Source: Candidatus Kuenenia stuttgartensis (GTDB lineage Bacteria; Planctomycetota; Planctomycetia; Pirellulales; UBA1268). From it: DNA of 64,000 nt. The stretch is from assembly GCA_945870505.1 (NCBI GenBank), contig CAMBSN010000002.1, positions 10,366 to 74,365 on the forward strand, written 5' to 3'. Of the stretch, positions 2,762-26,777 are shown piece by piece. Positions within the stretch are counted from its first letter, which is position 1. Every line of letters begins with the position of its first letter. The position numbers and the translations under genes were made by a program. The notes under the pieces are model-generated. The model was not told the DNA's origin. It saw only the letters and a program-made list of their open reading frames with translations, and made no database searches.

Positions 2762-2789
2762 GCGGACCGCGCCGCGCAGGGGCAGCCGC

Positions 2790-7905: not shown

Positions 7906-7915
7906 TTCCCACTGC

Positions 7916-9323: not shown

Positions 9324-9344
9324 CCCCGCCGCCTGGCCCCCGTC

Positions 9345-9386: not shown

Positions 9387-9416
9387 AAGATTTTGGCGCC
9401 TCCTAGCTTCGCGCGC

Positions 9417-10723: not shown

Positions 10724-10728
10724 TCGAG

Positions 10729-11865
10729 ATGGCATCGTGTCGCCGCCTCGCGCTCGTGCTCCTGGCCATGCTCGCGCGGCCATGGATCTGGCTCATGCTT
10801 GCGGTCTGGGTTCTGTGGCCGGTCCTCTCACTACTGTCACTGCTGTTGAACGTGATGACCCCGTCGGCCACGCTGACGCCCGTCGCCATCGTGTCCGGCC
10901 CCACGGTGCCGCCCAATGGCGGGGCCGACGTCCGCGAGGACCGGCTGGCGACGATCACAGACTGGCATGCGCTGTGGGCTCGCGTGTTCGTGGCGGCTCC
11001 GGGCGGAGGATATACGCTCGTCGAGGCGGACAGGGATCGCAGCGAACGACTTGGCGACTGGGACATCCTCGACCGACTCCCGGCGCTCGAGCGGCTCTGG
11101 ATGACCGCCCCCGACGTGCTTTCGGAAACGGGCTGGCGGCGGATCGGCGACCGCGCAAGGCTCGAACTCCTGTCGCTGCAGAACGTCGGCACCTGCTACG
11201 CCGTGGGCGACGATGGCTTTGCCCGTGACGGCCGCGAGGCGCTCTCACGGCTGACCCGCCTCCAGCACCTCGAACTCCGTGGCACTGGCCTCGACGCAGG
11301 CATGCTCCTGCCGCCGCTGCCCGCGCTCGAAGCCTGCGGCATCGGCTGGAGACACCTCGAGGAGAATCTGACAACGCTCGCCGCGGGCTCGCCCCGGCTG
11401 CACTCGCTCGCGCTGGAGACCTTTCCAGAGTTTCAGTTCACGCCCGGCATGCTCGCTGCCCTCCGGCAGATGCCGGCACTTCGCACGGTCTTCATCGCCG
11501 CGGCGGTTCAGCCCGAAGAGGAGCCGGCGATGGCCCGCCAGGTCGCCGAACTTGGGCGGGCGGTGCCGAAGGTCCGCGTCCGACCGGGCAGCTACTCCAC
11601 GAAGCGGGTGCGGGCCGTGGGCTCTGCCACCTTCGCCCTCGCCGGCATCTGCTGGGTGTTGTGGTTTCAGGCGGCGACGCTGCTCTCCACGCCGCTGGCG
11701 TGGATGCTGCCCCGCCGGTTTCCGCCGCACGCGGTCTGGCCAACGGCCGTGGCAGCGGCTGGCAGCGCCGCGTTTTTTATCCTCTGCCAGAGCTTCGGCG
11801 TCGCCTGGCTGCCCGCGCTGGGGCTGGCCCTGTTTGCCGTCGGCGTTGGGATGTTATGGGCCGGT
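10729..11865 (+). CDS. Membrane protein with a leucine-rich-repeat-like domain, N-terminal part (the reading frame appears to break near 11.86 kb)
   Basis: A GGGAGG Shine-Dalgarno sits 8 nt upstream of ATG 10729. The product has an N-terminal TM helix and an LRR-like segment (LTRLQHLELRGTGL..., SPRLHSLALETF..., MPALRTVFI), followed by TM helices. After about 11865 this frame becomes Arg-rich nonsense while the +1 frame continues as a plausible TM protein. Confidence 0.55.
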
Positions 11866-11875
11866 CTTCGACGAC

Positions 11876-12928
11876 ATGCCCGGATGGCCCGCTCGGCTCA
11901 CGTGGCTGGCGATCGGCGCCGACTACGCCGGCGGCCTGCTGATTGGTGGCACGTTCATGGGAGCGCGGGCTACGGCCGACCGCTGGTTGATGGGGTACGA
12001 ACCGGCGGCAGCCGTTGCCCTCGTCGTCGCGGCGGCCGCCGCGCTCGGCTGGAAGATCGCTCGGGTCGCACGGCTACCGCGGATCCTGGCGGAAGGGGGT
12101 CGGGAGGCCGCGGTCGTGTTGAGCACGGGCGGCGGCCAGCCTGTGTCGCCGACAGGCCATGCCGACCGGAGGTGGTGGATGCACGATGTGCCGATCGACA
12201 GGCAACTGACTCGTCCGCTGCCGACAGCGACCTCCGCTGCGGCCGGGTTCGCCGACATGCTCCGGCGGCCGCAGTCGCGGCTGACGGCTCAGCTGAACGT
12301 CGCGGTCGCGATCGTCCCTGGCATGCTGGGTGGGTTGGCCGCGATCAGCTCTGAAAGCAGCCAGTCGCTGATGGTGCTCGTGGAACGGGTTCCGCAATTG
12401 CTCACCGGGTTTGCCGGGATATCGGCCGCCGCTGCGGTCTCGCAGACGGCTGGAATGTGGTGGCAGCGTCGAAACAGTCTCATGCTCGACTTCCTCCGGC
12501 CGGTGTCGCGACGCGACTACTGGCTGGGCCTTCGCGCAGCGGTTGCCCGCGACCTCGCCCCGCCGCTGGTGGTTGCGGCTGCCGGTGTGGTGGGCGCGGT
12601 GATGTGGTGGGGCCAGGGACGGATGCTCCCCTGGCTCGTGTCGGGGCTGGGGTTCGTGGGCGTGGTTGCGGTGGCCCATGCGATGGTGCTGCTCATCGCC
12701 ATTGGCCGCCGACCGCTCGTCACGGCGACGATCGCCATCGTTGTTCTCGTCGTGGCTGCCTTTGGGCTTCTCGCGACGGTCTTCGAGTCGATTTCGTACG
12801 GTTGGTATGGCGAGCCGCTCCCCTTCCCGTGGTGGCGGGCCATCGCGGGGGCCGCCGTTCTCCTTGCCGCCGGCCTCGCGATTCGCGCCGCCGTGCTCTG
12901 GCGGCTCGAGGATCGCGAAATCGCCTGA
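11876..12928 (+). CDS. Polytopic membrane protein, either the C-terminal part of the gene above or a separate gene (first in-frame ATG is given)
   Basis: Frame of ORF 11552..12928. It contains hydrophobic helices (LTWLAIGADYAGGLLIGG, VVGAVMWWG, LVSGLGFVGVVAVAHAMVLLIAIG, IAIVVLVVAAFGLLATV). It lies downstream of the ABC ATPase, as expected for a permease-like partner. Confidence 0.55.
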   Translation: MPGWPARLTWLAIGADYAGGLLIGGTFMGARATADRWLMGYEPAAAVALVVAAAAALGWKIARVARLPRILAEGGREAAVVLSTGGGQPVSPTGHADRRWWMHDVPIDRQLTRPLPTATSAAAGFADMLRRPQSRLTAQLNVAVAIVPGMLGGLAAISSESSQSLMVLVERVPQLLTGFAGISAAAAVSQTAGMWWQRRNSLMLDFLRPVSRRDYWLGLRAAVARDLAPPLVVAAAGVVGAVMWWGQGRMLPWLVSGLGFVGVVAVAHAMVLLIAIGRRPLVTATIAIVVLVVAAFGLLATVFESISYGWYGEPLPFPWWRAIAGAAVLLAAGLAIRAAVLWRLEDREIA

Positions 12929-13009
12929 TTGTTCAGAACGACGTAGGCGGTTACAGCCCTCACGTCATCGAGCGGTGGTCCTTCTCTTGCCTGCCACACC
13001 CAGTCGGAC

Positions 13010-13027
13010 TAAACTAAGTCTAGTTTA
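13010..13027 (+). promoter_or_regulatory. Candidate operator palindrome upstream of the Phd/VapC cassette
   Basis: TAAACTA-AGTC-TAGTTTA is a perfect 7-bp inverted repeat in an AT-rich patch 55 nt upstream of the antitoxin ATG. Confidence 0.4.
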
Positions 13028-13081
13028 TGTCGAGCTTGTTTGGATGCGAGAACGTGGGTCGCAGCCCCACGAGGTATCTCC

Positions 13082-13324
13082 ATGGCCACCGTGATCAACA
13101 TCCATCAGGCGAAGACCCACCTCTCGAGGATCGTCGATGAAGCGGCGGCCGGCCGGGAAGTGATCATCGCCAAGGCAGGCCGCAAGGTGGCGAGGCTGGT
13201 GCCGATTGACTCGAAGCCACGACCCAAGCGGTTTGGCGGGCTCAAGGGGCGGATCAAAGTGCCGGACGACTTCAACGCACCTCTCGACGCCGCCGTGATC
13301 GCCACCTTCGAGGGCCGATCGTGA
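13082..13324 (+). CDS. Type II antitoxin, Phd/YefM family
   Basis: Contains MATVINIHQAKTHLSRIVDEAAAGREVIIAKAGRKVARLVPI, a typical Phd/YefM N-terminus. It is 80 aa long, and its stop overlaps the toxin start (GTGA). Confidence 0.85.
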   Translation: MATVINIHQAKTHLSRIVDEAAAGREVIIAKAGRKVARLVPIDSKPRPKRFGGLKGRIKVPDDFNAPLDAAVIATFEGRS

Positions 13325-13716
13325 GCAGGATTCTTCTCGACACCCATCTGCTGCTCTGGGCGGTCGCCGAGCCCCGGAAGCTCCCGCCCGGGGCCCGCAG
13401 GCGGATCGAAGAGGCAGACGTCTTCGTCAGTGCGGCATCTCTCTGGGAGGTGAGCATCAAGGCCGCGTTGGGAAAGCTCGCGGCAGATCCCGCCGAACTG
13501 CTGGCGGAGATTGAGCCCGCGGGATTCACGCTGCTGCCGATCACGGGCGAGCACGCCGCGGCCGTCGCCAAACTGCCTGCGGTGCATGCAGACCCGTTCG
13601 ATCGGATGCTCGTGGCCCAGGCAAAGACGGAGCCCCTGCTTCTGTTGACCAACGATGCCGTGCTCGCCGGGTATGGCGACTGCGTGGAACTGGTGGCGGC
13701 GAAGCCGCGACGCTGA
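13321..13716 (+). CDS. vapC: Type II toxin, VapC (PIN domain)
   Basis: The PIN acidic residues are in the expected contexts: LLDTH, SLWEVSIK, HADPFDRMLVAQA and LLTND. GTG start. Confidence 0.85.
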   Translation: MSRILLDTHLLLWAVAEPRKLPPGARRRIEEADVFVSAASLWEVSIKAALGKLAADPAELLAEIEPAGFTLLPITGEHAAAVAKLPAVHADPFDRMLVAQAKTEPLLLLTNDAVLAGYGDCVELVAAKPRR

Positions 13717-13727
13717 ATGTCCGTGGC

Positions 13728-14324
13728 TCACGTTGCCGGGCGGCGGGCCACCGGTGAGACTTCCTCGAGCCGAAACTCCTTACGGCTCAGCGCCTCGTAG
13801 TGATGGCCGATGTCGATCTGCGCCCCCTCCGTGACCTGATTGCCGTGCTCGTCGAGGCGGGCATTCATCGTGGCCTTCTTGCCGCTGCGGCAGATGGTCT
13901 TGATCTCGATGAGGTTGTCGGCCCAGGCCAGCAGGTACTTGCTGCCCTCAAACGGCTCGCCCTGGAAGTCGGTCCGGATCCCGTAGCAGAGCACCGGCAC
14001 CGAGAGCTGGTCGCAGACCCGTGTCAGCTGCAGCACCTGCAGCGGCGTGAGGAACTGCGACTCGTCGATGAGTACGCAGTGCACCGGGCCATCGGCCTGC
14101 GAGTGCTTGACCGCGTCATAGAAGTCGTACGACGCGTCGAACGCGATCGCCTGGGCGGTGAGGCCGATGCGGGAGTGGATGAGGTGCGCGCCGCTGCGGC
14201 TGTCGATGGCTGGTGTGTAGAGCAGGGTCCGCATGCCCCGCTCTTCGTAGTTGTGGGCCGACTGGAGCAGCGTCGTGCTCTTGCCCGCGTTCATCGCCGA
14301 GTAGTAGAAATAAAGTTGGGCCAT
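13728..14324 (-). CDS. tdk: Thymidine kinase
   Basis: Contains [30 protein letters not shown] (P-loop), VLIDESQF, and the C-terminal zinc-ribbon region C..C / ...GHHYEALS. Confidence 0.95.
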
Positions 14325-14337
14325 GATCTCTCCAGTG

Positions 14338-15108
14338 TCAGCGCTTGCCCCTCGGGCGCACAGCCCCGCGGCTTCGTCGCCTGGCGGAAGCGCTCCGCGG
14401 CAGGTCGATCCCGTGGGCGAGTAGCTGCCGCTCTACCTGCTCGACCCAGCCACGATTGGCGGCAGGGCTTGCCGGGCTGGGATGCAGAATGCTCATGATC
14501 GGCGGGCCGTCGTCACCGAGCGCTTCCCGGGCCCGAGCCGCGGCGAAGCTGCCCACGCCGATCACCCGCTTCGGCTGGCACCACGTCACGAGCCGTCGCA
14601 GGGCCTCGTCGCAGAGTTCAAAGAGCGGCTCTCGCTCCGCGGCGAAGAGCTTGTCGGGCGTGCGGTTCCGCCCCGACGCTTCCATGAACACGAGCGGGCA
14701 GTAGTTCGCGACCAGAAAGCGTTTGCTGAAGGTATCTGCCGAACCAAACCGATCCTGCACCCAGCCCCACACCCGGCGGCCACTCACCTCGCTCCGCGTG
14801 CAGGCAAAGCCCTCGATCGGCCGCTTCGGATGCACGCTCTTCGGCTGGTCCACCTTTGCCTCGATCCCCAAGAACTCGCGGACGAACCCGACCTCGCCAA
14901 AGGGCACGCCCGTCTGGGCCATGCCCAACGGCCCCGGGTTCATTCCCAAGAGGACCGCATCGACCCCCTGCCGCGCATACCGCTCGAGATAGGCCTCGTG
15001 GCTCCGCCGTGCGTAGATGAGCGGGTTGTAGGTGCACGCCGTGGGCGACCGAAACACGAGGGCATCCGTCTCTCGCGCGAGCCAGCGTGCGATGGCGATG
15101 GGGTTCAT
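14338..15108 (-). CDS. Uracil-DNA glycosylase, family 3 (SMUG1-like)
   Basis: [17 protein letters not shown] and HPSPASP match the two SMUG1-family active-site motifs. The start was chosen at MNPIAIARW. Confidence 0.85.
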
Positions 15109-15245
15109 GAAACGGCCACGGCACAAGAGTCCGGACGGGATGCGTGCGGGATCGTACGGTATCTGCCCGGCGAGACTCCTGCGAGCCTCCTGCCGCAGTC
15201 CCCGGAATCAGGCCGACCAATCGGGTCGGCGTTTCCGCCGCGTGG

Positions 15246-18200
15246 ATGCGGCTGAAACGCTGCGGTAAGATAAGGTCGATCGGCGCTGGGCCGAACGCCG
15301 CTGGAGTCGTCGGTTTGACCGCGCCCCAATCGCCTGTGCCGAAGCCCGCCCGCCCGCGCGACGGCTGGATCACGCTGCCGGTCGACCTCGTGGGCCGACT
15401 GACGGCGTTTCGTGGCCGTGTCCGCCGGATCAAGTTCTTCGAGGCGGCCTGCGCGGCCTGCGGCGGCGTGGCCCTCGCGTTCCTGGCGATCTTCCTCTGC
15501 GACCGCCTCGGTGAGACGCCTGTCCTCGTTCGCACCGCGATCTTCGCAGCCGCACTGGCCGCCTGCGTGGCGGTGCCGCTGGCGATCGTCCGCTGGGGCT
15601 ACGGGCTTGGGTCGCTGGAGCAGGTGGCGCGGCTGATCGAGCGGCGGTTTCCAGCGGTGGGCGACGAACTGCTCGGCATCATCGATATCGTTCGCACCGG
15701 TGCCACAGGGCAGTCGAAGTCGCGGGCCTTGTGCGAGGCCGCCGTAACGCAGGTGGCCGAGCAGTCGCGGCGGGTCGACTTTCGCGACGCGACGCCCCCT
15801 GCGCGGCTCGTTGCCTGGGCGGTGGCTGCCGGCCTGCCGTTCGCCGCATGTGCCGGAATCGCCGCGGTGGCGCCCGACGCAGCCGCCAACGCCTGGGCCC
15901 GACTCGCCGCGCCGTTTGCGGCGATCGAGAGGTTCACCTTCGCCCGCGTCGCCTCGCTTCCGGAGCGGGTCGTGGTGCCGCATGGCGAGTCTGCCGAGGT
16001 GCGCGTGGCGCTCCGCGACGATACCCGCTGGCGGCCGGACGACGCGGCCTTGTGGATCGGACGACAGCCCCGGCTCTCGGCGCGGCGCGACGGAGACCAC
16101 TATGTGTTCACGCTGCCGCCACAGGTTTCCGACGGTCTGCTCACCGTAGCGGCCGGCGATGCCCGACAGCGAGTGTCGCTCGCGGCCGTGCACCGGCCGG
16201 AACTCGCCGGCATCGAGGCCGAGGTGGTGCTGCCCGAGTATCTCCAGCGACCGGGCAGCCGCCGGCAGGACATCCGCGGCGGAATGATCTCGCCGGTGAA
16301 GGGAAGCAGTGTGTCGGTCGTCGCCACCGTCACCCGCGACCTCGCCGAGGCGACGGTCGATGGCGAGGAGGTGCGGCCCACCGGCAGGGAAATTCACACG
16401 CCACCCCGGGTCGTCGATGGCGAGGCGAAGGTCTCGCTCTCGTGGCGGGATGTCGACGGTCTCGAGGCGGCCGCGCCGCTCGAACTCCTGATCGCCGCGC
16501 GGGCCGACGAACCGCCGATGGTGGTGATGCTCGATGTGCCACAGACGCGAGGCATCCTTCTCGAGACCGACACGCTGAAGTTCAAGGTCGCAGCCCGCGA
16601 CGACTTCGGCATTCGTCGTGTGGGCCTCGAATGGGAGGGGCTCGCCGACGCCTTTGCGTCGGCCGGATCCGCGGGCGACGCCGCGGCGTTGGAAAAAGGC
16701 GAGCGGATCCTGCAGGCGGGTGGCGGCGACGTGGAGTCGCTCGATGCCGCGGCGACGTTCTGCCCCGACGCCCTCGGGATTCGACCTCAGCCGATCGCGA
16801 TCCGGGCCTTCGCCGAGGATTACATGCCCGGCCGCGGTCGCGCGGTGTCGTCACCGCTGGTGCTCTACGTTGTCGATCGCGCGGAGCATGCACTCGTGCT
16901 CAACACGAGGCTTCAGCAGTTCCGCCAGCAGGCGAGCGAGGTTCGCGACCGCGAGATGGGCCTGCTCGCCACCAACAAAGAACTGCGAAAGCTGCCCGCC
17001 GAGCAACTGCTCTCGCCCGAGAGCCGGGGCCGGCTCGAGGCACAGGCTGCGGCCGAGGAGGCCAATGCCCGCCGGCTCGAACGGCTCGTTGACGAAGGGG
17101 CCGAACTCGTTCGCGAGGCGCTCAAGAATCCCGAGTTCGAGGCGAACACGCTCGAGCAACTCGCCGAAGATATTCAGACGCTCGCCGATATCGCCGAGAG
17201 CCGGATGCCCGGCGTGGCCGACCTCCTCGCGCAGGCGGCAAGTGCGCGGCGTGGCGGCGACAAGCCACAGGCCGCCGATCCTCAGCCCGCCGATCCTCAG
17301 CCCGCCGAGGGGAAGCCGTCGCCGGGCGAGCAGAAGCCGAGCGAAGGCAAGCCGGACGAGCAGGCGTCGTCGCAGCAGCAGCCCGGCGGCGAGTCGCCAC
17401 GGGTTGGCGAGCAGCGGGAGCAGCCAGGCGGCGGAGCGGCCGACGGGAGTGAGGATGCCCCGCAGGAAAAACCGCCGATTCCGCAGGTCGTGGACACCGA
17501 GTCGTCGCAGCAGCCGAAGGGCGATGAGCAGGGCGAAGGGAAACCCGGCGGGTCGGGCCGGTTTGGCCTCCCCTCGACGCAGGCCGGCGTGGCGCCCCCC
17601 AAGGAACCCGAAGCGCAGGAGGAGCTTGCGGCCGACGAGGCGCTCGACGAGGCGATCGCGAAGCAGGAAGAACTGCTCGCGGAGTTTGCGAAGGTGGCCG
17701 ACGAACTCACGGCGGTGATGGCGCGGCTCGAGGGGAGCACGTTCGTGAAGCGACTCAAGCTTGCCTCGCGGGAGCAGGGGGAGATCGGCAGCCGGATCGC
17801 GGCGATGGCAGCTGAGGCATTCGGTAAGGCCGATGGGCAGCCCGCGCCGGTGAAGCGGGCGCTCGGCGACGTCCGCGATCAGTCACTGCGGGAGACCGAT
17901 AGGATGTCGGCCCTGATGGACGACCTGCAGGCCTACTTCGACCGTCGGCAGCTGCCCGCCTTCCGCACGGTGCTTGAGGAGATGAAGGAACTCGACACGC
18001 TCGGCAGCCTCCGCCAGCTCTCCGATGACGTCATCAAGGAGGCGGGCATGTCGATCGCGCAGGCGGAGTTTTGGTCCGACACCTTCGATCGGCTCGCCGA
18101 CGACCTCGTGCCGCCATCGCAGGGTGAGGGGAGCGGCGAGGCGGGCGGACCGCCGCGGGAGAGCGTGCCGCCGGAGGTGGTGCTCGAGGCGATGAAGATC

Positions 18201-18767
18201 CTCGAGGAAGAGGTCAACCTTCGCGAGGAGACCCGCGTGGCCCAGCAGGCAAAGAACGCGGTGGCTGCAGACGAGTATGCGGCCCAGGCGGAGAACCTCG
18301 CCGACCGCCAAGACGCGCTGGCCGACCGGGTCGTCGATCTCGTCGATCGGCTCCTGGAGCAGCCCGATGGTGAGCAGACGTTCGGCCAGGAGATCCAGCT
18401 CTTTGAGAAGGTTGAGGAGGTGATGGCGGAGGCGACCGACACCCTCGCCACGCCCGACACCGGCCCCAAGGCGATCGGTGCCGAGACGGAGGCGATCGAA
18501 CTGTTGCTCGCCGCCCAGGCGGCGGCCTCGAACGGCGGTGGAGGTGGCGGCGGCGGCGGCGGGGGCGCGGGTGCCACGCCGGGCGGCGGTGGCACCGGCA
18601 CGGCCACCAGCGCCGCGCTCGCGCTCGCCGGCCGCGGCAACCGCAGCGGCCGCGGCGAGGGGGGCGAGAAGGATCAGGCCACCGGCACGAGCGGCCGGGT
18701 GTTGCCCGAGGAGTTTCGCGCTGGCCTCGACGCCTACTTCAACAAGTTCGAGAAGGAGCGAAGGTGA
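15246..18767 (+). CDS. Large (about 1170 aa) membrane-anchored protein with coiled-coil and low-complexity regions, resembling DUF4175-type proteins
   Basis: Two TM helices lie near the N-terminus (GGVALAFLAIFLCD, AIFAAALAACVAVPLAIV). The middle is a long acidic/Pro/Gln-rich disordered stretch (PQAADPQPADPQPAEGKPSPGEQKPSEGKPDEQ...). There is also a run of 11 Gly and a C-terminal LPEEFRAGLDAYFNKFEKE. The start is uncertain (15144 or 15246). The DUF4175 assignment is from memory only. Confidence 0.6.
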   Translation: MRLKRCGKIRSIGAGPNAAGVVGLTAPQSPVPKPARPRDGWITLPVDLVGRLTAFRGRVRRIKFFEAACAACGGVALAFLAIFLCDRLGETPVLVRTAIFAAALAACVAVPLAIVRWGYGLGSLEQVARLIERRFPAVGDELLGIIDIVRTGATGQSKSRALCEAAVTQVAEQSRRVDFRDATPPARLVAWAVAAGLPFAACAGIAAVAPDAAANAWARLAAPFAAIERFTFARVASLPERVVVPHGESAEVRVALRDDTRWRPDDAALWIGRQPRLSARRDGDHYVFTLPPQVSDGLLTVAAGDARQRVSLAAVHRPELAGIEAEVVLPEYLQRPGSRRQDIRGGMISPVKGSSVSVVATVTRDLAEATVDGEEVRPTGREIHTPPRVVDGEAKVSLSWRDVDGLEAAAPLELLIAARADEPPMVVMLDVPQTRGILLETDTLKFKVAARDDFGIRRVGLEWEGLADAFASAGSAGDAAALEKGERILQAGGGDVESLDAAATFCPDALGIRPQPIAIRAFAEDYMPGRGRAVSSPLVLYVVDRAEHALVLNTRLQQFRQQASEVRDREMGLLATNKELRKLPAEQLLSPESRGRLEAQAAAEEANARRLERLVDEGAELVREALKNPEFEANTLEQLAEDIQTLADIAESRMPGVADLLAQAASARRGGDKPQAADPQPADPQPAEGKPSPGEQKPSEGKPDEQASSQQQPGGESPRVGEQREQPGGGAADGSEDAPQEKPPIPQVVDTESSQQPKGDEQGEGKPGGSGRFGLPSTQAGVAPPKEPEAQEELAADEALDEAIAKQEELLAEFAKVADELTAVMARLEGSTFVKRLKLASREQGEIGSRIAAMAAEAFGKADGQPAPVKRALGDVRDQSLRETDRMSALMDDLQAYFDRRQLPAFRTVLEEMKELDTLGSLRQLSDDVIKEAGMSIAQAEFWSDTFDRLADDLVPPSQGEGSGEAGGPPRESVPPEVVLEAMKILEEEVNLREETRVAQQAKNAVAADEYAAQAENLADRQDALADRVVDLVDRLLEQPDGEQTFGQEIQLFEKVEEVMAEATDTLATPDTGPKAIGAETEAIELLLAAQAAASNGGGGGGGGGGGAGATPGGGGTGTATSAALALAGRGNRSGRGEGGEKDQATGTSGRVLPEEFRAGLDAYFNKFEKERR

Positions 18768-19843
18768 TGGTGAGGCGCACGATCCTCGGCATCGCGATGG
18801 TCGCGGCGGCGATGACGGCCCGCGGGCAGGGGCCGGTCGTCCGCTATGGCGATCCGGTGCCCCGCGATGTCCGCGAGATGTACGACGCCGGGTTGCGGTA
18901 TCTCATCAAGACGCAGGACGACAGCGGCGCGTGGAAGGACGGCCAGGCCGGCCCCGGCGTGACCGGCATGGCGGTGATGGCGCTGCTCGCCTCGGGCGAG
19001 GATCCCAACCACGGACCCTACCGGGTGCCGATCCGCAAGGCGCTGCGGAGCATGATCGTGTCGCAGAACGCCGAGACGGGCTTCCTCGGGTCGGGCCAGG
19101 GGCAAGACAGCATGTACCAGCACGGGTTCGGCATGCTGGCCCTCTCCGAGGCCTATGGCACTGTCGACGACCGTACACTGTGGACGGAGGCCTCGGCCGG
19201 CGGGCAGAAGGGTCGGCCGATCGGCCAGTCGCTCGAACTGGCGGTGCGGTGTGCGGTGACGAGCGCGAAAAACAACCCGCACGGTGCCTGGCGGTATTCA
19301 CCAGATGCCAAGGACGCCGACACGTCGGTGAGCGGCGCGGTCTTGATGGGCCTGCTCGGGGCGCGCAATGCCGGCCTCGAGGTGCCCGATGAGACGATCG
19401 ACAAGGCGATCAAGTACTACGCCTCCATGACCGGCCCCAACGGCCAGTTCGGCTACTCCGGCGGCCCGGGCGGCGGCAGTGATGCCGTCACGAGCATCGG
19501 CGTCCTGGTGATGGCGATCGCCCGACAGAAGGCACTGCCCCAATACGTCAAGTCGGCAACGTATCTCAAGGGTCGATCGCTCGGCAACGAGCAGGGGGGC
19601 GCGGAGGGCTATCCGACCTACACCCGCTACTACCGGGCGCAGGCGCTCTTTCAGGCCGACGTCGCCGTGTGGGAGAAGTGGAACGCCGGTCTCGTGAAGG
19701 AAATGAAGGCGATGCAGGCCAAGGACGGCAGTTTTGCGGGGTTCGCCGGCCGTGGCGGCGGGTTTGGCGGCACCGTCGACACGTCGCTGGCGCTGTTGTC
19801 GCTCGCGGTCAACTACAAGTTCCTCCCGGTGTACGAACGATGA
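18764..19843 (+). CDS. Secreted prenyltransferase/squalene-oxidase-repeat (alpha/alpha-toroid) protein
   Basis: It has a signal peptide and repeated Q..DG.W-type motifs (KTQDDSGAWKDG, NPHGAWRYS, GPNGQFGYS, QAKDGSFAG). Its ATGA overlaps the upstream stop. Confidence 0.75.
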   Translation: MMVRRTILGIAMVAAAMTARGQGPVVRYGDPVPRDVREMYDAGLRYLIKTQDDSGAWKDGQAGPGVTGMAVMALLASGEDPNHGPYRVPIRKALRSMIVSQNAETGFLGSGQGQDSMYQHGFGMLALSEAYGTVDDRTLWTEASAGGQKGRPIGQSLELAVRCAVTSAKNNPHGAWRYSPDAKDADTSVSGAVLMGLLGARNAGLEVPDETIDKAIKYYASMTGPNGQFGYSGGPGGGSDAVTSIGVLVMAIARQKALPQYVKSATYLKGRSLGNEQGGAEGYPTYTRYYRAQALFQADVAVWEKWNAGLVKEMKAMQAKDGSFAGFAGRGGGFGGTVDTSLALLSLAVNYKFLPVYER

Positions 19844-20871
19844 GACGTGCCGTCACGACCCGCTGGTGGAGGAGTTTCTCGGCGGTGATCGCCGCGGCGG
19901 TGATCGCATCGGCCGCGATGGGCGATCAGGAAAAAACCTTCAACCAGCCGAACGATGAGGCCATCGAGGAGTTCGTGCCAGACAATAATGAAGAGCTCGT
20001 GATCGACCTGCAGGCGGAGGCGAGAATCGAGAATGGTCCGCAGCCTACGCCCGCGGCCCCCGTCGGCGGATTCCTCGGACTGGGCCTGCGGGCGATGTTC
20101 AATGCGATCGCGCCTCAGCCCCAACTGGACCAGCAGGCGATTCCTGCCAATGAAGCCGAGGACGGCGAGATGCCCAAGGACCCGGCGCAGGCCCAGTTGT
20201 GGCAGCAGCGGAAGCAGATTCGCCAGCAGGCCAAGCACATGGAGCAGCTCTTTCAGCCGGTGCTCCGGACCGAGCTCGAGATGGTCCGCCAAGCCTGCCC
20301 AAAACTTTCTCCGGAGGCGCGACAGGAGGTGCTCGCGGCCGGTCGGGCGGCGGTGACGAAGACGGCGCTCGAGTTTGCGACCCGGCAGATGCTCGGCGGT
20401 CAGCCCCGGCGGGCCTTCGACGCCCGGCGAAGCATTCAGCTCCCCATCGCCGAAACTCTCGAGCCGCACGCCTCCGCCGAACAGGTGGCCGCCTACAATC
20501 GCGAGCAGGCGGCGCGGATGGCCCGCCGCGCCGAGGCTGCCCGCGTGGCGATCATCGCCAAGCTCGATCGGCAGCTCGACCTCTCGGCGGCGCAGCGGCG
20601 GGCGATCGAAGACGACCTCGCAGCCCGCTGGGAAGAAGCCTGGCTCCGCGAACTTGATGACACGGGCATGGTGATCAACAACTTCCGGCCTGCGCCCGAC
20701 TACGCCAACGGCTGTATCGAGCCGCACCTCGACGACGCTCAGCGGGATGAGTGGATGCAGTGGCGAAAGGCCGCTGGCATGGCGGTGGTCGGCAGGCACG
20801 TCGGCTGGAACTTCGATGGCCAAGGACTCCACCAGGAGGACGACTGGTGGACGCAGGGAGACTCGCCATGA
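19840..20871 (+). CDS. Secreted alpha-helical protein of unknown function with L[STD]xxQ motifs
   Basis: It has a signal peptide (RSFSAVIAAAVIASAAMG) and is helical and charged. It contains LSAAQRRAIEDDL and LDDAQRDEWMQW. ATGA overlaps occur at both ends. Confidence 0.55.
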   Translation: MRRAVTTRWWRSFSAVIAAAVIASAAMGDQEKTFNQPNDEAIEEFVPDNNEELVIDLQAEARIENGPQPTPAAPVGGFLGLGLRAMFNAIAPQPQLDQQAIPANEAEDGEMPKDPAQAQLWQQRKQIRQQAKHMEQLFQPVLRTELEMVRQACPKLSPEARQEVLAAGRAAVTKTALEFATRQMLGGQPRRAFDARRSIQLPIAETLEPHASAEQVAAYNREQAARMARRAEAARVAIIAKLDRQLDLSAAQRRAIEDDLAARWEEAWLRELDDTGMVINNFRPAPDYANGCIEPHLDDAQRDEWMQWRKAAGMAVVGRHVGWNFDGQGLHQEDDWWTQGDSP

Positions 20872-21890
20872 GACGTGTGCGGCGACTCTGGGAATGCGCG
20901 GCGCTGGTTCTCGTCGGCGCGCCGGCGTGGGCTGAGGACGATCGTGTCATCGAGGAGCCGCCCACGCCGCAGGCCCAGGGAGAGCAGCAGCACCTCATCG
21001 ATCTCGGCACCAACTTCGACGCCAACCTCTTCGAGCAGCAGGGCAACGGCTGGGTGCTCCGCGGCAATGCGAATATCGTGATGCCGCAAGGGCAGTTGAT
21101 TCTCAATGGTCGCCGCATGATCCTCCCGGGTGGGATCGCCGTCGCCGAGGAGCAGTCGCCCGAATCGCCGACGTTCTCCCGGGCGCGAATCCTCGGCGAG
21201 AAGCGACTCGAGCGGATCGCCGCGTCCTGTGACCTGACCGATCCCCAGCGGCGGAAGCTCCGCCTGGCGATGGAATCCGACATCCGCCGGTTTGCCGCCG
21301 TTGTCGACGCCACGCGGGCGAAGTACGCCGGTGTCAGGGTGAACCTCAACGATCAGGAAGGCCAGAAGAAGTGGCACCAGTTCCAGCAGGACGTGCAGGA
21401 GTGTCGGCAGTTCCTGCGGCGGCTGTTCGACTCGGGATCGCTGTTCGCCGCCGCACTGCCCGCGACCCTCGATCCCGCCCAAGTGGCGGGCATCGACGCG
21501 GAGATCAAGGCACGCCGCTCGTTTCGCTGGCGGACCATGGTCGTCTCGACGCTCTCCAAGATGGACGACATGCTCGGCCTGACCCAGGCCCAGCACGACC
21601 TTCTTGCGGAGGCGCTGCTGCGGAACGAGCCAGCCCTGCGGCTCGATGAACTCTCGCCCGAGCAGGAGAATGCTCACCTGCAACTGAACCTCGTCTACAT
21701 GGTTCTCTCCGGGGTCGACCAGGGGCGTCTCAAGAAGGCAACGAGCGAGCGGCAGTGGCGGACGCTGGCCTTGCTCATGAACCAGGGCAAGTCGATGCGA
21801 TCGTGGATCGAGCAGCAGGGCATTCTGGAGACCGGCGAGGCGTCCGCCGCACCGCCGAACGGGGGTGGACGGAGGCCGGTGCGGCCATGA
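20868..21890 (+). CDS. Secreted protein of unknown function with L[TD]xxQ motifs
   Basis: It has a signal peptide (LWECAALVLVGAPAWA). It contains LTDPQRRKLRLAM, LDPAQVAGI and LTQAQHDLLAEAL. ATGA overlaps occur at both ends. Confidence 0.55.
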   Translation: MRRVRRLWECAALVLVGAPAWAEDDRVIEEPPTPQAQGEQQHLIDLGTNFDANLFEQQGNGWVLRGNANIVMPQGQLILNGRRMILPGGIAVAEEQSPESPTFSRARILGEKRLERIAASCDLTDPQRRKLRLAMESDIRRFAAVVDATRAKYAGVRVNLNDQEGQKKWHQFQQDVQECRQFLRRLFDSGSLFAAALPATLDPAQVAGIDAEIKARRSFRWRTMVVSTLSKMDDMLGLTQAQHDLLAEALLRNEPALRLDELSPEQENAHLQLNLVYMVLSGVDQGRLKKATSERQWRTLALLMNQGKSMRSWIEQQGILETGEASAAPPNGGGRRPVRP

Positions 21891-23344
21891 TCCCCGGCGC
21901 ATGCCGCGGTGTGTGGACGTGTCTGGTGATTATCGTCGGGTTGACCAGCCCCGCAGCCGGCGACTCGCCGCCGATCGACCTGGTGCATGACGGGCGACTG
22001 ACGGGTCGCATCCTCGAGACGGACGATCCGGCGGTGGTCCGCGTCGCGGCGGACCTGTTCGCCGAACCGGTCGAGTTCGTGGCCGCGGCGGTGCTGCAAG
22101 ACGGCGAGGCCGCCGACGAACCGCCACAGCTTTCCGGCCTGCCCGGCCGCGTCGGACTCCTGACGTCGGGTGAGACACGGCTGCTCGGCTGCCTGGCGGC
22201 ATGCGCGGATGGCCAGGTCGGCTGGCAGCCGCTCGGCGCGACGCGGCCGGTGGCGTTCGCCGAGAAGAATACCGCCGCCTCGATCGATTATCTCGGGCTC
22301 GATGTCGTTGGTGGCCCGGGCGTCACGCTGACCCGTCAGGGCCGCTCTGGCGACTGGACCGTCGTCGACGTGATCACGGATGGCCCCACAGCCCGCGACG
22401 GCCGGCTTTACGTTGATGATCGGGTGGCGACGATCGCGGAGGGAGCCTTTGGCAGGCCCGTCGACCTGGCGATGGCGAAGGCCGAGTCAGTCAGGCTGCT
22501 CCTCGTCGGTCCGGTCGGCTCGATGGTGCGGCTCGGCGTGGTGCGGGAGGCCGGTACCGAGGAGATCGTACTGGTCCGCGATCTCCAGGGCCGCGATGAC
22601 CTCGCTGGCGCCGCCGCCAAGGACGTGCTCGATCGCGCCCTTGCAGTGCAGCAGACGCTCGGCGGCCACTCGATCCCTCGACCGGCGACGGTGCACCTCA
22701 TCACCGGCGAATCGTTCACGTGCGAGCTGCTTGGCGCGGACGAACGCACGGTCCGGGTCGGTCTTGGCGATCGTGGCGAACTCAGAATCCCTGGCGACAG
22801 CGTGCGGGCCCTCGAGCTCACCTCGGCTGGCGTGCGGCCGATCCTCAAGCAAAAACTCACCCGGCTCCTCACGGTGCCGCGCACACAGCAGGCCTCTCCC
22901 CCCACCCACGTGGTGCGGATGGTGGGGGGCGACTATCTCCGCGGCAGGCTTATCGGCATCGATGCCGAGACCGTTCGCTTCGAAGTGGCCGGCGACATCA
23001 AGTCATTTCCGCGCCGCGACCTCGCCCGGATCATTCGCCTCATGGAGACGGACGAGGCTCCGCCCCGCCTCCGCGCGGCGCTGGCCGACCGCGGCGGGCT
23101 GCCGCTCGTCGTCGTGGGCGGCGACGGTCGGCGGCAGGCGGTCGCGGCCACCGGGATGCGGGCGGATTCCGTCGTCGGCGAGAGTCCGGGCTTCGGGCTG
23201 ACGACCATCCCGCTTACCGGCGCGGCGAAGGTGCTCCTCGGCGAAGCGATCGACGAGGTGTTGGCAGCGGAACTGCCGTATGCCCAGTGGGTGCTCCGTC
23301 CGTCGCCGTCAGCCAAGGCATCCGCCGGCGAACGGAGCCCATGA
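21887..23344 (+). CDS. Secreted PDZ-like domain protein with about five internal repeats of roughly 40 aa
   Basis: It has a signal peptide. The PDZ-like segment is VVDVITDGPTARDGRLYVDDRVATIAEG...VGSMVRLGVVR. Repeated units include TGRILETDDPAVVRV, FTCELLGADERTVRVGL and YLRGRLIGIDAETVRFEV. Confidence 0.6.
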   Translation: MIPGACRGVWTCLVIIVGLTSPAAGDSPPIDLVHDGRLTGRILETDDPAVVRVAADLFAEPVEFVAAAVLQDGEAADEPPQLSGLPGRVGLLTSGETRLLGCLAACADGQVGWQPLGATRPVAFAEKNTAASIDYLGLDVVGGPGVTLTRQGRSGDWTVVDVITDGPTARDGRLYVDDRVATIAEGAFGRPVDLAMAKAESVRLLLVGPVGSMVRLGVVREAGTEEIVLVRDLQGRDDLAGAAAKDVLDRALAVQQTLGGHSIPRPATVHLITGESFTCELLGADERTVRVGLGDRGELRIPGDSVRALELTSAGVRPILKQKLTRLLTVPRTQQASPPTHVVRMVGGDYLRGRLIGIDAETVRFEVAGDIKSFPRRDLARIIRLMETDEAPPRLRAALADRGGLPLVVVGGDGRRQAVAATGMRADSVVGESPGFGLTTIPLTGAAKVLLGEAIDEVLAAELPYAQWVLRPSPSAKASAGERSP

Positions 23345-23347: not shown

Positions 23348-25489
23348 TCAGGCCGCCGGCGTGGGCAGAAGTTCGGGGGCCGTTGGTTCTGACTTCGTGC
23401 CCGGGGCGGCAGGGAGGCTTGCCGGCACTGGTTCGGCCCGGGTGGCCGGGTCGCGGGCCGGAAGTTGCGTGGCCGGTGCATCGGCGCCAAGGTCGGCAAA
23501 GTTTTGCGAGACGGCCCCGCGACTGAAGACTCCCGGCCGCGAGTGGCCGTAGTCGAGATAGAGGCTTGCATCCCGCTGGCGGGCCCGACGGTGGGCGTCG
23601 AAGTAGGCCTTGCCTGGCCACGGCCCTTCGGCGAGGAACACGCCGTTGTATTCCAGCAACGATCCCTTGCGGAAGTGAAGCTGCGAGATCGAGCGGTTGT
23701 AGTCCACGAGCGACCGGTAGTAGGAGCTCTCCGCCTCGGCACGCCGCCGCTGGGCGTCGAGGAGCTGGTCGAGGGTGACGGTGTTGGCGTCGTAGGCGGC
23801 CTGCACGGCCTCCACCTGTCGCTCGGCGGCGACGCGACGATTGAAGTTGGTCTGGGCGAGGGCGAAGTTGGTGTCGACGTTGCGAACCGCCTCGACGAGG
23901 GCGTGCGAGGCCTCGAGCTCTTCGTCTTGAAGTCGGGCCCGTTCGCGGGCGAGCTGCAGCTGGAAGTGCCGAACCGTCGCCAACTCGCGGCGGAAGCCGA
24001 GCGGCATCTGGAACTGAGCCCCCGCCTGCCATTCCTGGAACTGGCCGCTGAACAGGGTCGAGTAGGCGTCGGTGCCGACGAGTGGGTCTGGATTGGCTCC
24101 GCCGTCGGCGTTGTAAGGGTCGTAGTTCTGGTTGATCAGCTGCTCACCCATGCCGAGGAACCGCCAGCGGCCCACCATGTCGAGCCGCGGCAGGATCAGG
24201 TTCTTGGCGGCGACCAGCTCGAGTTCTCGCTGCTTGATCACCCACTTCTGCTTGCGGAGTTCTGCCGACCGAGAGAGTGCTTCGACGAGCGACTGCTGCC
24301 AATCGAAGGAGATCCGGGCCGTCGTCGGCTCATCGGCGGGGCGGATCAGCCGGCCGTCGCTCGCCGAGATCCCCATCATGTATCGCAGCCGGTTTTCGCA
24401 GCGGTAGACGTCGGTGAGGGCCTGCTCCACCTCGCTGCGGAAGAAGAAGTACTGCTCGCGGGCCTGGGCCTCCTTGTCGGCCTCGCCGCCGCGCGACTGC
24501 TCGACGTAGAGGGCGTGGACCTTCCGCCAGGCCTCGAGTGAGCTGTCACGGCCCGCCTTGCGGGCCTCGAGGTTGCGGTAGGCGAAGTAGAGTTCCCAGT
24601 ACGACTGCTCGGTGTCGCTGATGAGGTTGCGGACACCGGCCTCGAAGTCGGCCAGGGAGATATCAGCGTTGATCCGGGCGAGGAGCACGCCGCGGAATAA
24701 CGGTCGGCCGAAGATGTTATCGAACGGGTCCGGACCGGCGATCCGGTTGTAGGTGACGCCGGCGCCCTGGAGGAGCGGCTGGCTGAACGAGAAATCGTAG
24801 TTGGTCGTCCAGGTTGCAGGGACTTCACGAATCGGTGAGTTGTTGTTGTCGTAGATGGTGGAGTTTGAGAAGCCCCACGTGGCACCGGTTGCGCTCCGTT
24901 TCTGGATGCCCGATGTCCAGTTGCCTTGGTCGCCCAGCAACTTCTGCTGGAAGATGAGTGCCCCTGTCGGATTGACGTTTTGCGGCCGGTTCTGTCGCTC
25001 CCAGGTGAGCGAACTGGTGAGCTGGGCGTCGAACAGCGCCAGGGCGGCCTCGACGCCGCGGAACGGCTCGGTCTCGGTGATCGCCGGGTCGTAGATGGTC
25101 GGCGTCTGTTGGGGGCTCGTGAGCAGCGACACGGCCGGCTCGCCGGTCTGCGGGCGGGGGCCACCGAAACTCGCGAACCGGCCGCCGAGATTGCGGAGGA
25201 CCTTGCCGTTTTCGAGCGAGGTGCGGATCGCCTCTTCGAGCGATAGTTCCCAGACGTTGTCGAAGCTCGGGTTCGAGAGCGTCAGCGGCTCGACGGCGCC
25301 GGCTGCTTCATCGAGCGGCGGCTGATCGCTGTCGGGATACTCGAGCTTCTGGATCGAACCCACATAGTGCGATAGGTCGCCGTCTTCAAAGAAGTAGAAC
25401 GGCTGCCGCGGCGCACAGCCGCTCGCGACGAGCGTGAGGCTCGTGACCGCTACCCAGAGTTGTTTTGCGAGTCGTTGCACGGCAGGCAC
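23348..25489 (-). CDS. TolC-family outer-membrane factor, unusually long (713 aa), probable lipoprotein
   Basis: It has a lipobox LVASGC. Two internally similar halves have the coiled-coil and beta pattern of outer-membrane efflux proteins (LEEAIRTSLENG..., LTDVYRCENRLRYMMG, LDQLLDAQRRRAEAESSYYRSLVDYNRSISQLHF). Confidence 0.8.
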   Translation of the reverse strand: MPAVQRLAKQLWVAVTSLTLVASGCAPRQPFYFFEDGDLSHYVGSIQKLEYPDSDQPPLDEAAGAVEPLTLSNPSFDNVWELSLEEAIRTSLENGKVLRNLGGRFASFGGPRPQTGEPAVSLLTSPQQTPTIYDPAITETEPFRGVEAALALFDAQLTSSLTWERQNRPQNVNPTGALIFQQKLLGDQGNWTSGIQKRSATGATWGFSNSTIYDNNNSPIREVPATWTTNYDFSFSQPLLQGAGVTYNRIAGPDPFDNIFGRPLFRGVLLARINADISLADFEAGVRNLISDTEQSYWELYFAYRNLEARKAGRDSSLEAWRKVHALYVEQSRGGEADKEAQAREQYFFFRSEVEQALTDVYRCENRLRYMMGISASDGRLIRPADEPTTARISFDWQQSLVEALSRSAELRKQKWVIKQRELELVAAKNLILPRLDMVGRWRFLGMGEQLINQNYDPYNADGGANPDPLVGTDAYSTLFSGQFQEWQAGAQFQMPLGFRRELATVRHFQLQLARERARLQDEELEASHALVEAVRNVDTNFALAQTNFNRRVAAERQVEAVQAAYDANTVTLDQLLDAQRRRAEAESSYYRSLVDYNRSISQLHFRKGSLLEYNGVFLAEGPWPGKAYFDAHRRARQRDASLYLDYGHSRPGVFSRGAVSQNFADLGADAPATQLPARDPATRAEPVPASLPAAPGTKSEPTAPELLPTPAA

Positions 25490-25736: not shown

Positions 25737-26777
25737 TCAGCGGTCGGGCCATCCCGGGGTCACGGAGTCGCTCACGGCTTCTCCATCCCGCCAGACGAAC
25801 CGGGCCGAGACCACTGGAAACCGGGCGATCATGGCCGGGCCGCGTTCGTGCCCCAGCACGCTCGCCGCCGTGGCAACCGCGTCGGCCGTCGTGCAATCGG
25901 GGGCGATCACCGTGACCGCCGCCGGCCCGGCGACGCCAAGGCCTGTTCGTGGATCAACGATGTGGCTGAATCGCCGGCCGTCGATCTCGACGAACTGCCG
26001 CGCGTCGCCAGAGGTGGTGATCGCGGCATTCTCCAGCACGACCACCTGACCGGCTCGGTCGCCCGGCATCGGAGCCACCTCGATCCGCCAGCCGTCGGTT
26101 CCCGGGGGCGCCGCCGAGACGGCCACATCGCCCGACGCGTCGACCATGGCCGAGGCGATGCCGCGGCCGGCGAGCACTGCGAGCACGCGGTCGGCCGCGT
26201 AACCCATGCCGATACCGCCCGGGTCGAGCCGCATGCCGGGCCGCGTCAGCGACACCGTGCGGGCCTCGCGGTCGAGCACGACCGCATCCCCGCCGACGGC
26301 GGCTCGGGCAGCGGCGAGCTTCTCGGGCCGAGGCAGGTGGCCGGAACGGCGCGACTGCCGCCAGAGCGTGGTGAGCGGCCCGACGGTGATGTCGAACGCT
26401 CCGTCGGAGAGCCCGCGGATCTCGTTGGCCCTCGCAAGCATGGCCCAGAGGTCAGCGCCCACGCGGATAGGCTCTGGCGTCGGGGCAGCTACCGACAGCC
26501 GCGAGAGTTCGCTCTCCGGGTCGTAGTCGGAGAGGATGCGTTCGAGCCGCTCAGCCTCCGCGAAGCCCGCGGCGAGCGCCTGCTCGCCGGTCTCCTGGTC
26601 GCGGGCGTGGACCGTGATCGTCCAGGCCACCCCCATCAGCGGCCTGGTGGCGGCGACCCGCACCGTAGTGGCGTCCGCGGCGGTGGGCTGGCCGTGCATG
26701 GCAGTACCGCGACCGCAGCCCGCGCAGGCCAGGACCGCTGCCGCCAGAGCCAGTTCGCGATACACTGCCGTCACCAT
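25737..26777 (-). CDS. apbE: FAD:protein FMN transferase (ApbE family), probable lipoprotein
   Basis: Contains GAFDITVGPL, LDPGGIGMGYAADR and SGD...F..DG..FSHI.DPRTG. The lipobox is LACAGC. The start was chosen at MVTAVYRE. Confidence 0.85.
   Translation of the reverse strand: MVTAVYRELALAAAVLACAGCGRGTAMHGQPTAADATTVRVAATRPLMGVAWTITVHARDQETGEQALAAGFAEAERLERILSDYDPESELSRLSVAAPTPEPIRVGADLWAMLARANEIRGLSDGAFDITVGPLTTLWRQSRRSGHLPRPEKLAAARAAVGGDAVVLDREARTVSLTRPGMRLDPGGIGMGYAADRVLAVLAGRGIASAMVDASGDVAVSAAPPGTDGWRIEVAPMPGDRAGQVVVLENAAITTSGDARQFVEIDGRRFSHIVDPRTGLGVAGPAAVTVIAPDCTTADAVATAASVLGHERGPAMIARFPVVSARFVWRDGEAVSDSVTPGWPDR

Follow-up and report, generated by a model that had tools for sequence, protein, structure and literature searches.

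Operons that combine a MoxR ATPase, a DUF58 protein and BatA are very widespread, occurring in Bacteroidota, spirochaetes, Francisella and rhizobia, and have been linked to aerotolerance, virulence and envelope integrity. To our knowledge, no mechanism is known for these systems, which have been unexplained since 1999. In Bacteroides fragilis and spirochaetes, the Bat operon genes are BatI/MoxR, BatII/DUF58, BatA, BatB, BatC, BatD and BatE. Previous studies showed that B. fragilis bat mutants were partially rescued by reducing agents, and it was proposed that Bat proteins reduce damaged periplasmic proteins; Leptospira bat mutants had no oxidative-stress phenotype (PMC3557215). In Borrelia, the vWA domains of BatA-type proteins face the periplasm (PMC5700661). 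The alphaproteobacterial MoxR-DUF58-DUF4159(BatA)-GATase1-like operon is named cmdA-D in Rhizobium leguminosarum (RL3499-RL3502) and, according to a title cited in PMC5700661, is a 'broadly conserved operon' whose mutation leads to envelope and morphology defects. The four-gene core is also found in Sinorhizobium and Shinella.

The window (the whole stretch of 64,000 nucleotides analysed here) has the same gene order and domains between 1661 and 7905, all on the plus strand (ORF bounds): a MoxR AAA_3 ATPase (1661-2761), a DUF58 protein (2733-3701) and a BatA N-terminal double-TM protein (PF07584, E 9.7e-18; 3647-5704, probable ATG 3698), all three recognised by Pfam, followed by a 734-aa GATase1-like fourth protein (5701-7905). 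In tblastn, the fourth gene matched the Shinella fourth gene at E 8e-13 and the S. meliloti locus at E 3e-8, and the GATase1_like matches were sub-threshold for the window protein and its alphaproteobacterial counterpart alike. However, the alphaproteobacterial operon ends after four genes with no homologue next to it of the five genes, g1 to g5, that lie at 15246-23344 in the window. These five genes are a planctomycetal addition; all loci seen to have them so far are either labelled Planctomycetota or carry no label.

In the window, the fourth gene and g1 are separated by ~7.3 kb of lineage-specific DNA (7906-15245) with genes on mixed strands, among which Pfam identified a GntR regulator (9345-9830, plus strand), an ABC ATPase (9809-10723, plus), a thymidine kinase (13728-14324, minus) and a UDG-family glycosylase (14338-15126, minus); a 544-aa ORF without family name (10720-12354, plus) is also present. 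The distance from MoxR and DUF58 (1661-3701) to g1 downstream is therefore 11.5 kb. Because the intervening genes include divergent ones, the two halves cannot be co-transcribed here, and their functional coupling is read from the relatives only. In 40 of the 47 informative related planctomycete loci, the MoxR(AAA_3)-DUF58-BatA-GATase1-like genes directly precede g1 on its strand, and the distance from the end of the fourth gene to the start of g1 is at most 540 bp and mostly at most 100 bp (tblastn estimate). This adjacency holds even at 35-41% g1 identity, and a BatA double-TM protein after DUF58 is also present in L082 and L087-L089. The split arrangement was found only in the closest relatives of the window (L001, L003, L004, L006 and L008) plus L030 and L081, and in the latter two no Bat genes adjoin g1.

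Based on this synteny and on the MoxR operon present in the window, g1-g5 probably form the distal module, facing the envelope, of a Bat/Cmd-type MoxR system in planctomycetes (probability about 0.7), and in the relatives they are, as judged from gene order, the downstream part of a nine-gene MoxR/'aerotolerance' (Bat/Cmd-type) envelope operon. The preliminary description had taken them for an undescribed envelope system of five genes that stands alone, independent of known machinery. Although this would agree with the physical separation of the cluster behind divergent genes in the window, with the sub-threshold family scores of all five products and with the two loci that have no Bat genes beside g1, it is difficult to reconcile with the same-strand MoxR genes just upstream in 40 of 47 loci or with the operon kept 7.3 kb away in the window genome. 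Such independence appears largely refuted by synteny and is very unlikely. As a Bat/Cmd-type module, g1-g5 would derive from an ancestral co-oriented cluster of MoxR, DUF58, BatA-type, GATase1-like, g1, g2, g3/g4 and usually g5 genes, which an insertion between the fourth gene and g1 would have split in the lineage of the window.

The assignment to the Bat/Cmd type is based on MoxR and DUF58 in a co-oriented cluster (in the relatives), BatA and the GATase1-like fourth gene. As in Bat operons, genes for exported and membrane proteins with domains for protein interaction come after those for MoxR, DUF58 and BatA-type membrane proteins; the SH3-like modules of g5 recall the SH3 domain of BatE, and the periplasmic redox role proposed for Bat has its parallel in the thioredoxin domains of some g5 orthologues. 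However, g1, g2, g3 and g4 are without counterpart in described Bat operons, and no Pfam match above threshold to BatD (PF13584), TPR (BatB/C) or vWA/MIDAS was obtained for g1-g5, the window BatA or the fourth protein. A Bacteroides Bat operon in the strict sense, which these components define, was consequently rejected.

Translation of 15246-23344 gave five consecutive plus-strand ORFs with no internal stops and with the ends given below for each gene, as had been described. GC3 was 0.82-0.88 in g1-g5 versus 0.72-0.77 in long antisense ORFs, and protein-level homologues of all five products are present in related loci. The genes are real, coding and translationally coupled. Inside the cluster, sites resembling terminators or promoters did not exceed chance expectation, which would count in favour of a single unit. 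In Pfam and NCBIfam profile searches, no product scored above any curated family threshold, in agreement with the earlier description of the products as having no assignable function. The gene-order comparison also supported a conserved tight cluster, the genes being co-oriented and closely packed in relatives. What is conserved, however, is not the full set of five: 24 of 51 informative loci lack g5, and in other lineages the g3/g4 pair is rearranged, being duplicated or sited ahead of g2. Signal-peptide-like (Sec-type) N-termini on g2-g5, together with the hydropathy of the N-terminal membrane segments of g1, make the suggested envelope or periplasmic complex a reasonable inference.

The first gene, g1 (15246-18767, plus), encodes a membrane-anchored protein of 1173 aa from ATG 15246. 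Hydropathy indicated three hydrophobic segments (62-85, 91-115 and 187-210) rather than the two TM segments reported previously, while the coiled coil, acidic Pro/Gln linker and poly-Gly tract were found as described. After the membrane segments come about 330 residues rich in beta structure (216-555), then a coiled coil and a variable PQ/acidic linker; in the C-terminal part, a helical domain and the C-terminal tail are conserved, with the poly-Gly tract between them. Which start codon is used is uncertain, as conservation is lacking over the first ~40 residues. There are 104 homologues with identity down to 35%, none of them with a name, and 474 cluster representatives at E<=1e-30; no PDB relative was found. 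Proteins of the DUF4175/TIGR02302 family have 2-3 N-terminal TM helices before a long extracytoplasmic part of low complexity that is rich in Gln and Gly, and g1 resembles them in its N-terminal TM helices and its long region with PQ- and Gly-rich tracts. A fragment of its beta region aligned to positions 185-321 of the Pfam DUF4175 model (PF13779) with 15.2 bits (E 0.005) against a gathering score of 27.3 bits, and 8 of 18 g1-family fragments gave DUF4175 matches (best E 1e-5). However, g1 remained below threshold, full-length g1-family proteins did not match DUF4175, and g1 did not match any of the NCBIfam models, among which TIGR02302 is presumably included. The kinship with DUF4175 would be remote homology at best.

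The second product, g2 (18767-19843, plus; 358 aa, secreted), had been described as a secreted alpha/alpha-toroid, and the AlphaFold (AF2) model (pLDDT 76, pTM 0.78) and Foldseek agree on an (alpha/alpha)6 toroid of the prenyltransferase/squalene-cyclase repeat type. Its structural neighbours are 8paj (monodomain SHC-like), SHC, MstE, AprG, GH76 and C3d, with TM ~0.6 and sequence identity of 12-17%; 8paj, 1sqc and MstE were matched at E ~7e-5, probability 1.0 and TM 0.6. Among the five products, conservation is highest for g2 (median identity 74%), with >3849 homologues and an identity of 71-98% among the 120 listed. The fold and the QW-like G-x-W hairpins are like those of monodomain class II terpene cyclases (MstE; SHC-like 8paj/8pak), and many aromatic residues are invariant. 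Residues 183-187 form a DxDT[ST] motif (here D183-A-D185-T-S) that is invariant in all orthologues, and the earlier statement that no product carries catalytic motifs needs to be qualified in this respect. The motif contains an acidic DxD ahead of an inner helix that may be comparable to the DxD which MstE uses in place of DxDD (PMC12324236).

These features, including the high conservation, could point to a lipid-centred module, in which g2, as an active or ligand-binding periplasmic protein of the monodomain class II terpene-cyclase-like type, would bind or cyclise an isoprenoid (hopanoid or polyprenyl derivative) and g1, g3 and g4 would pass lipid between the membranes. However, the TM score and identity are generic for (alpha/alpha)6 barrels, and GH76, AprG and C3d resemble g2 equally well. 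Moreover, g2 is secreted, the canonical DxDD is absent, and the Pfam SQHop_cyclase/Prenyltrans gathering score was not reached (14.3 against 26.1 bits); the best g2 homologue gave 25.3 against 26.1 bits with SQHop_cyclase_C, and a homologue gave 25.6 against 26.3 with DUF6288. On inspection of the g2 sequence, other repeats show x-D-T-[ST] as a helix cap too, so DxDT[ST] may be structural. As a functional name, the label 'Squalene-hopene cyclase' that public databases give to g2 homologues is not supported. The lipid-centred module is compatible with the Bat/Cmd-module explanation, the two not being mutually exclusive, but it is unlikely. More speculative still is the wider idea that Bat/Cmd-type MoxR systems act on envelope isoprenoid lipids, with the planctomycetal g2 as a cyclase-like component paired with g3/g4 on a periplasm-spanning, DUF4175-like g1 and with MoxR coupling cytoplasmic ATP hydrolysis to periplasmic lipid/protein remodelling; it seems improbable.

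The secreted helical nature of the next two products was also supported. g3 (19840-20871, plus; 343 aa) and g4 (20868-21890, plus; 340 aa) are paralogues (hhalign probability 95.8%, E 7e-9). g4, for which 160 homologues were found, combines a disordered linker with an all-alpha domain at residues 100-320, across which pLDDT in the AF2 model is >90; its N-terminal motif is conserved. The L[TSD]xxQ motifs noted in both had hinted at Spy/CpxP. However, neither a Pfam search of 27 + 26 g3/g4 family members nor a PDB-sequence search with g3 and g4 gave a match, and Foldseek found none for the g4 model among PDB structures (best E 0.5); an identity as Spy/CpxP LTXXQ periplasmic chaperones gained no support.

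The last product, g5 (21887-23344, plus; 485 aa, secreted), is PDZ-like with internal repeats, as first reported: its family profile matched the Prc PDZ at E 2.8e-10, and the repeats were supported by hhalign. The PDZ domain lies at ~136-232, and three SH3-like modules of ~45 aa each lie at 28-85, 262-322 and 335-395; Pfam found PDZ in up to 9 of 24 family members and RimP-C SH3-like in 7 of 24. Similarity to the C-terminal processing proteases (Prc/Tsp, CtpB) is restricted to the PDZ domain. Matches to Prc/CtpB cover just PDZ segments, and g5 as an S41 peptidase was ruled out because an S41 catalytic domain was not found. g5 is a shortened form of a family of ~850-950 aa whose long orthologues bear PA14 or WCGPC thioredoxin domains; in three distant relatives (L081, L087 and L089) the orthologue has a C-terminal thioredoxin-fold domain with WCGPC. 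In the window, g5 lacks a thioredoxin domain, and its surroundings contain no protein with WCGPC.

Around the observed gene content, synteny, folds, paralogy and domain fusions, the topology, physical assembly and function of a Bat/Cmd-type module can be inferred along the following lines. MoxR would be a cytoplasmic AAA+ protein, DUF58 its vWA-like partner, the BatA-type protein a double-TM protein and the fourth a GATase1-like membrane protein. g1 would be anchored in the inner membrane by its three N-terminal helices, predicted from hydropathy alone to be N-in/C-out by the positive-inside rule, and ~960 of its residues would reach into the periplasm, with an Ig-like beta region and coiled coils, then a flexible linker and a platform of conserved helices. 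After export through Sec, the g2 toroid, the g3/g4 helical pair and the g5 PDZ/SH3 protein would assemble on g1; working from the cytoplasm, the MoxR/DUF58 engine would assemble or remodel this membrane complex. Envelope homeostasis is the likely output. A tentative extension is that PDZ, SH3-like modules and the toroid cavity capture periplasmic or envelope clients for thiol-redox repair or quality control. Client binding is possibly indicated by the g5 modules and the modelled g2 toroid, and a redox link possibly by analogy with the WCGPC-bearing g5 orthologues and the Bat literature; since the window g5 lacks the thioredoxin domain and g5 as such is absent from nearly half of the loci, the core function cannot be a redox one. 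The planctomycetal version adds five conserved unannotated subunits to the MoxR operon, including a ligand-binding or enzyme-like toroid, a protein that is thioredoxin-fused in some lineages and an all-helical pair, and it provides ways into MoxR-system function through candidate clients, a scaffold and the redox hypothesis. For annotation, g1-g5 should be read jointly with the MoxR operon 7 kb upstream.

Downstream of g5, a convergent gene on the minus strand (23348-25489) encodes a TolC-like outer-membrane efflux protein (Pfam OEP, E 6.6e-20), with its stop 3 nt from that of g5. This neighbour is present in 41 loci at a median identity of 86%, and such conservation, along with the long coiled-coil segments of g1, might suggest that g1-g5 are an accessory or adaptor of the channel, with the g1 coiled coils acting like a membrane-fusion protein for export. 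However, the orientation is convergent, no HlyD/MFP or transporter family match was found in g1-g5, and the channel gene is a conserved neighbour within this clade only, as it does not adjoin the cluster in L081, L082 and L087-L089, which are distant loci, or in the group with the order g1-g3'-g4'-g2; a role in TolC-dependent export is highly improbable.

The gene junctions had been described as four identical ATGA overlaps. This is correct for three of them (19840-19843, 20868-20871 and 21887-21890), but the g1/g2 junction at 18764-18767 reads GTGA, and g2 could start either at GTG 18764, with a 4-nt overlap, or at ATG 18767, with a 1-nt TGATG overlap. Stop/start overlaps are routine in this genome and not special to g1-g5, as ATGA also joins DUF58 to BatA (3698-3701) and BatA to the fourth gene (5701-5704), and GTGA joins two ABC genes (10720-10723).

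The five plus-strand open reading frames at 15246-23344, namely g1 (15246-18767), g2 (18767-19843), g3 (19840-20871), g4 (20868-21890) and g5 (21887-23344), are present and translate cleanly. They are genuine genes, as protein-level homologues of all five were found in related loci; in this window of about 69% G+C, their GC3 was 0.82-0.88 versus 0.72-0.77 in long antisense ORFs. The preliminary description had reported four identical ATGA junctions and was confirmed in part: three are ATGA, but the first (18764-18767) is GTGA, so that g2 would start at GTG 18764 or at the in-frame ATG 18767 (TGATG). Four-nucleotide overlaps also occur elsewhere in the window (DUF58/BatA, BatA/fourth gene and two ABC genes), and the coupling of g1-g5 is real but represents ordinary operon architecture. 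Promoter- or terminator-like sites within the cluster were not above chance. Pfam or NCBIfam thresholds were not reached by any of the five products; no solved relative was found by sequence for any of them, and an exact-sequence look-up of g3 returned no record.

Upstream lies a complete operon (1661-7905) encoding a MoxR AAA_3 ATPase, a DUF58 protein, a protein with a BatA N-terminal domain and a 734-aa fourth protein with a weak GATase1-like match, with internal ATGA overlaps at 3698-3701 and 5701-5704. Synteny was compared in 80 GTDB loci containing a g2 homologue and in several contigs that carry distant g1 homologues, and 47 loci extended far enough to be informative. In 40 of these, the fourth gene is co-oriented with g1 and ends no more than 540 bp from where g1 starts (mostly within 100 bp, as estimated by tblastn), including loci in which g1 was only 35-41% identical (L082/L083, L087, L088 and L089). 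This adjacency points to an ancestral nine-gene cluster, MoxR-DUF58-BatA-fourth gene-g1-g2-g3-g4-(g5), with the four-gene operon as the probable ancestral upstream partner of g1-g5. The arrangement was split in seven loci, five of which are the closest relatives of the window (L001, L003, L004, L006 and L008); in this lineage the fourth gene and g1 appear to have been separated by the insertion of a block of about 7.3 kb (7906-15245). The block contains a GntR regulator, an ABC ATPase and a 544-aa protein of unknown function, resembling a GntR-ABC triad-like unit, together with minus-strand genes for thymidine kinase and a UDG-family glycosylase, and several ORFs without family. The earlier interpretation of g1-g5 as an independent envelope system is thus supported only in part: an envelope complex is likely, but independence did not hold.

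As read in Sinorhizobium and Shinella, the alphaproteobacterial operon MoxR-DUF58-(BatA+DUF4159)-GATase1-like corresponds to the four-gene core, which has further relatives in the Bat operon of Bacteroides and the spirochaete homologues of that operon. A title cited in PMC5700661 names the Rhizobium leguminosarum counterpart as the 'broadly conserved operon RL3499-RL3502', mutation of which leads to morphology and envelope defects. The function of the Bat operon is still 'elusive' (PMC3557215). In Sinorhizobium and Shinella the operon ends after four genes with nothing g1-like beyond, and g1-g5 are therefore an extension found so far only in Planctomycetota-labelled or unlabelled loci; no description of it was found in the literature searched. 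Taken together, g1-g5 are a planctomycetal extension of a known, mechanistically unsolved Bat/Cmd-type system; they leave that question unsolved but add new testable components. The idea that g1 itself corresponds to the fourth alphaproteobacterial gene (RL3502-like) was wrong, the equivalent being the window gene at 5701-7905. A Gemmatirosa plasmid locus was alike by ORF sizes but has a different vWA/TPR/DUF58/BatA arrangement, and tblastn of g1 against plasmids gave no match. In Planctopirus limnophila Tn-seq, the MoxR/DUF58 pair Plim_0614/0615 and the 'squalene cyclase-like' Plim_0903 were non-essential; these were picked out by product name alone and may or may not be relevant. In L084 (CP090106.1), a 3.7-Mb record titled 'Sinorhizobium meliloti plasmid pSymB' that is probably a mislabelled chromosome, the fourth gene of the MoxR operon is broken or unannotated.

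The conserved cluster brings together the cytoplasmic MoxR/DUF58 pair, BatA-type membrane proteins, the membrane-anchored giant g1 and three to four exported proteins whose folds are of binding type. Close to its N-terminus g1 (1173 aa) carries three hydrophobic segments, and the positive-inside rule suggests an N-in, C-out topology. Next come a beta region of about 330 aa, a coiled coil and a PQ/acidic linker of low conservation, then a helical domain that is strongly conserved and includes the conservation peak (801-960), and finally a poly-Gly tract and a tail that is also conserved. All 104 g1 homologues detected were unnamed, and no PDB relative was found. Scanned alone, the beta region gave a sub-threshold match to Pfam DUF4175 (E 0.005), as did 8 of 18 g1-family fragments (best E 1e-5; Ig-like matches were weaker), while full-length g1-family proteins, including ten distant representatives, gave none; the similarity is treated as remote homology, not as membership. 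The beta-region profile retrieved 474 cluster representatives at E<=1e-30, 1181 at 1e-10 and 5047 at 1e-3; this is a large family whose remote fringe is broad. The helical segments of g1 showed no homology to g3/g4, and no g1 segment showed any to another. We infer that g1 could provide a scaffold in the periplasm for the assembly of g2-g5, and that MoxR/DUF58 would assemble or remodel the complex.

Among the five products g2 is the most conserved, with median identities over loci of 74% for g2, 60% for g1, 49% for g3, 47% for g4 and 37% for g5 (MoxR 90%), and it has more than 3849 homologues. Its AlphaFold model (pLDDT 76, pTM 0.78) is an (alpha/alpha)6 toroid of a generic kind; the Foldseek neighbours (monodomain SHC-like proteins, SHC, MstE, AprG, GH76 and complement C3d) all had TM of about 0.6 and 12-17% identity. 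Its homologues give borderline Pfam matches to DUF6288 and SQHop_cyclase_C, and the database name 'squalene-hopene cyclase' for them is not justified. All orthologues, including the most distant, carry an invariant D183-A-D185-T-S after a G-A-W-R-Y hairpin. The monodomain cyclase MstE has DxD in place of DxDD (PMC12324236), and the g2 motif may be likened to its acid motif as a lead; residue-level sequence alignment of the motif region to SHC or MstE yielded nothing. A lipid-centred function of the cluster built on g2 is considered improbable.

The exported proteins g3 and g4 are paralogous to each other (hhalign 95.8%, E 7e-9). For g4 the model, a helical fold, reaches high confidence at residues 100-320 (pLDDT above 90), and Foldseek against PDB found no match (best E 0.5). 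LTxxQ-like strings had been taken as a pointer to Spy/CpxP; this identity was rejected, since neither family had a Pfam or PDB-sequence match and Foldseek support was likewise absent. Other lineages have this pair duplicated, positioned ahead of g2, or fused. In 12 GTDB loci (L020, L021, L026, L028, L030, L035, L038, L043, L057, L064, L068 and L080), g3- and/or g4-type matches flank g2 on both sides, as would be expected if a further pair of this type preceded it. L050, L061, L066, L069 and others have the pair solely ahead of g2, and L081 and L088 have g3/g4-type repeats fused into 650-660-aa proteins. Each paralogue has two conserved cysteines (g3 C153 and C292; g4 C121 and C179), which may form disulfides with a structural role or act as redox-active pairs.

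A shortened member of a family of about 850-950 aa, g5 contains a PDZ domain (family profile versus Prc PDZ, E 2.8e-10; 9 of 24 members have a Pfam PDZ match) and three related SH3-like modules of about 45 aa (RimP-C matches in the family). Orthologues in L087 (16240-19083), L089 (16800-19565) and L081 (18758-19612) have a C-terminal thioredoxin-fold domain with WCGPC, and that in L082 (15423-17963) has PA14 instead; the window g5 has neither. The thioredoxin fusions recall that reducing agents partly rescued Bacteroides fragilis bat mutants, and that the repair of oxidised periplasmic proteins has been proposed as the role of Bat proteins (PMC3557215). Based on these fusions and precedents, client capture for redox repair or quality control is weakly favoured, with a probability of roughly 0.3. 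It is weakened by the dispensability of g5, which is missing from 24 of 51 informative loci, and Leptospira bat mutants without an oxidative phenotype also count against it (PMC3557215).

The minus-strand gene at 23348-25489, convergent with g5, encodes a TolC-like outer-membrane protein and is followed by an ApbE gene (25737-26876, minus strand). Its stop is 3 nt from that of g5, leaving no room for a terminator hairpin, and its median identity (86%) exceeds that of any of g1-g5. A role of the cluster as a TolC adaptor is considered very unlikely. Only in this clade is the TolC-like gene conserved as a convergent neighbour. Several loci, including L028, L032, L037, L038, L041 and L042, are ENA-derived MAGs titled 'Candidatus Kuenenia' (stuttgartiensis or sp.); the Kuenenia-titled loci are 65-80% identical to the Pirellulales-type cluster, and their bins are probably mislabelled.
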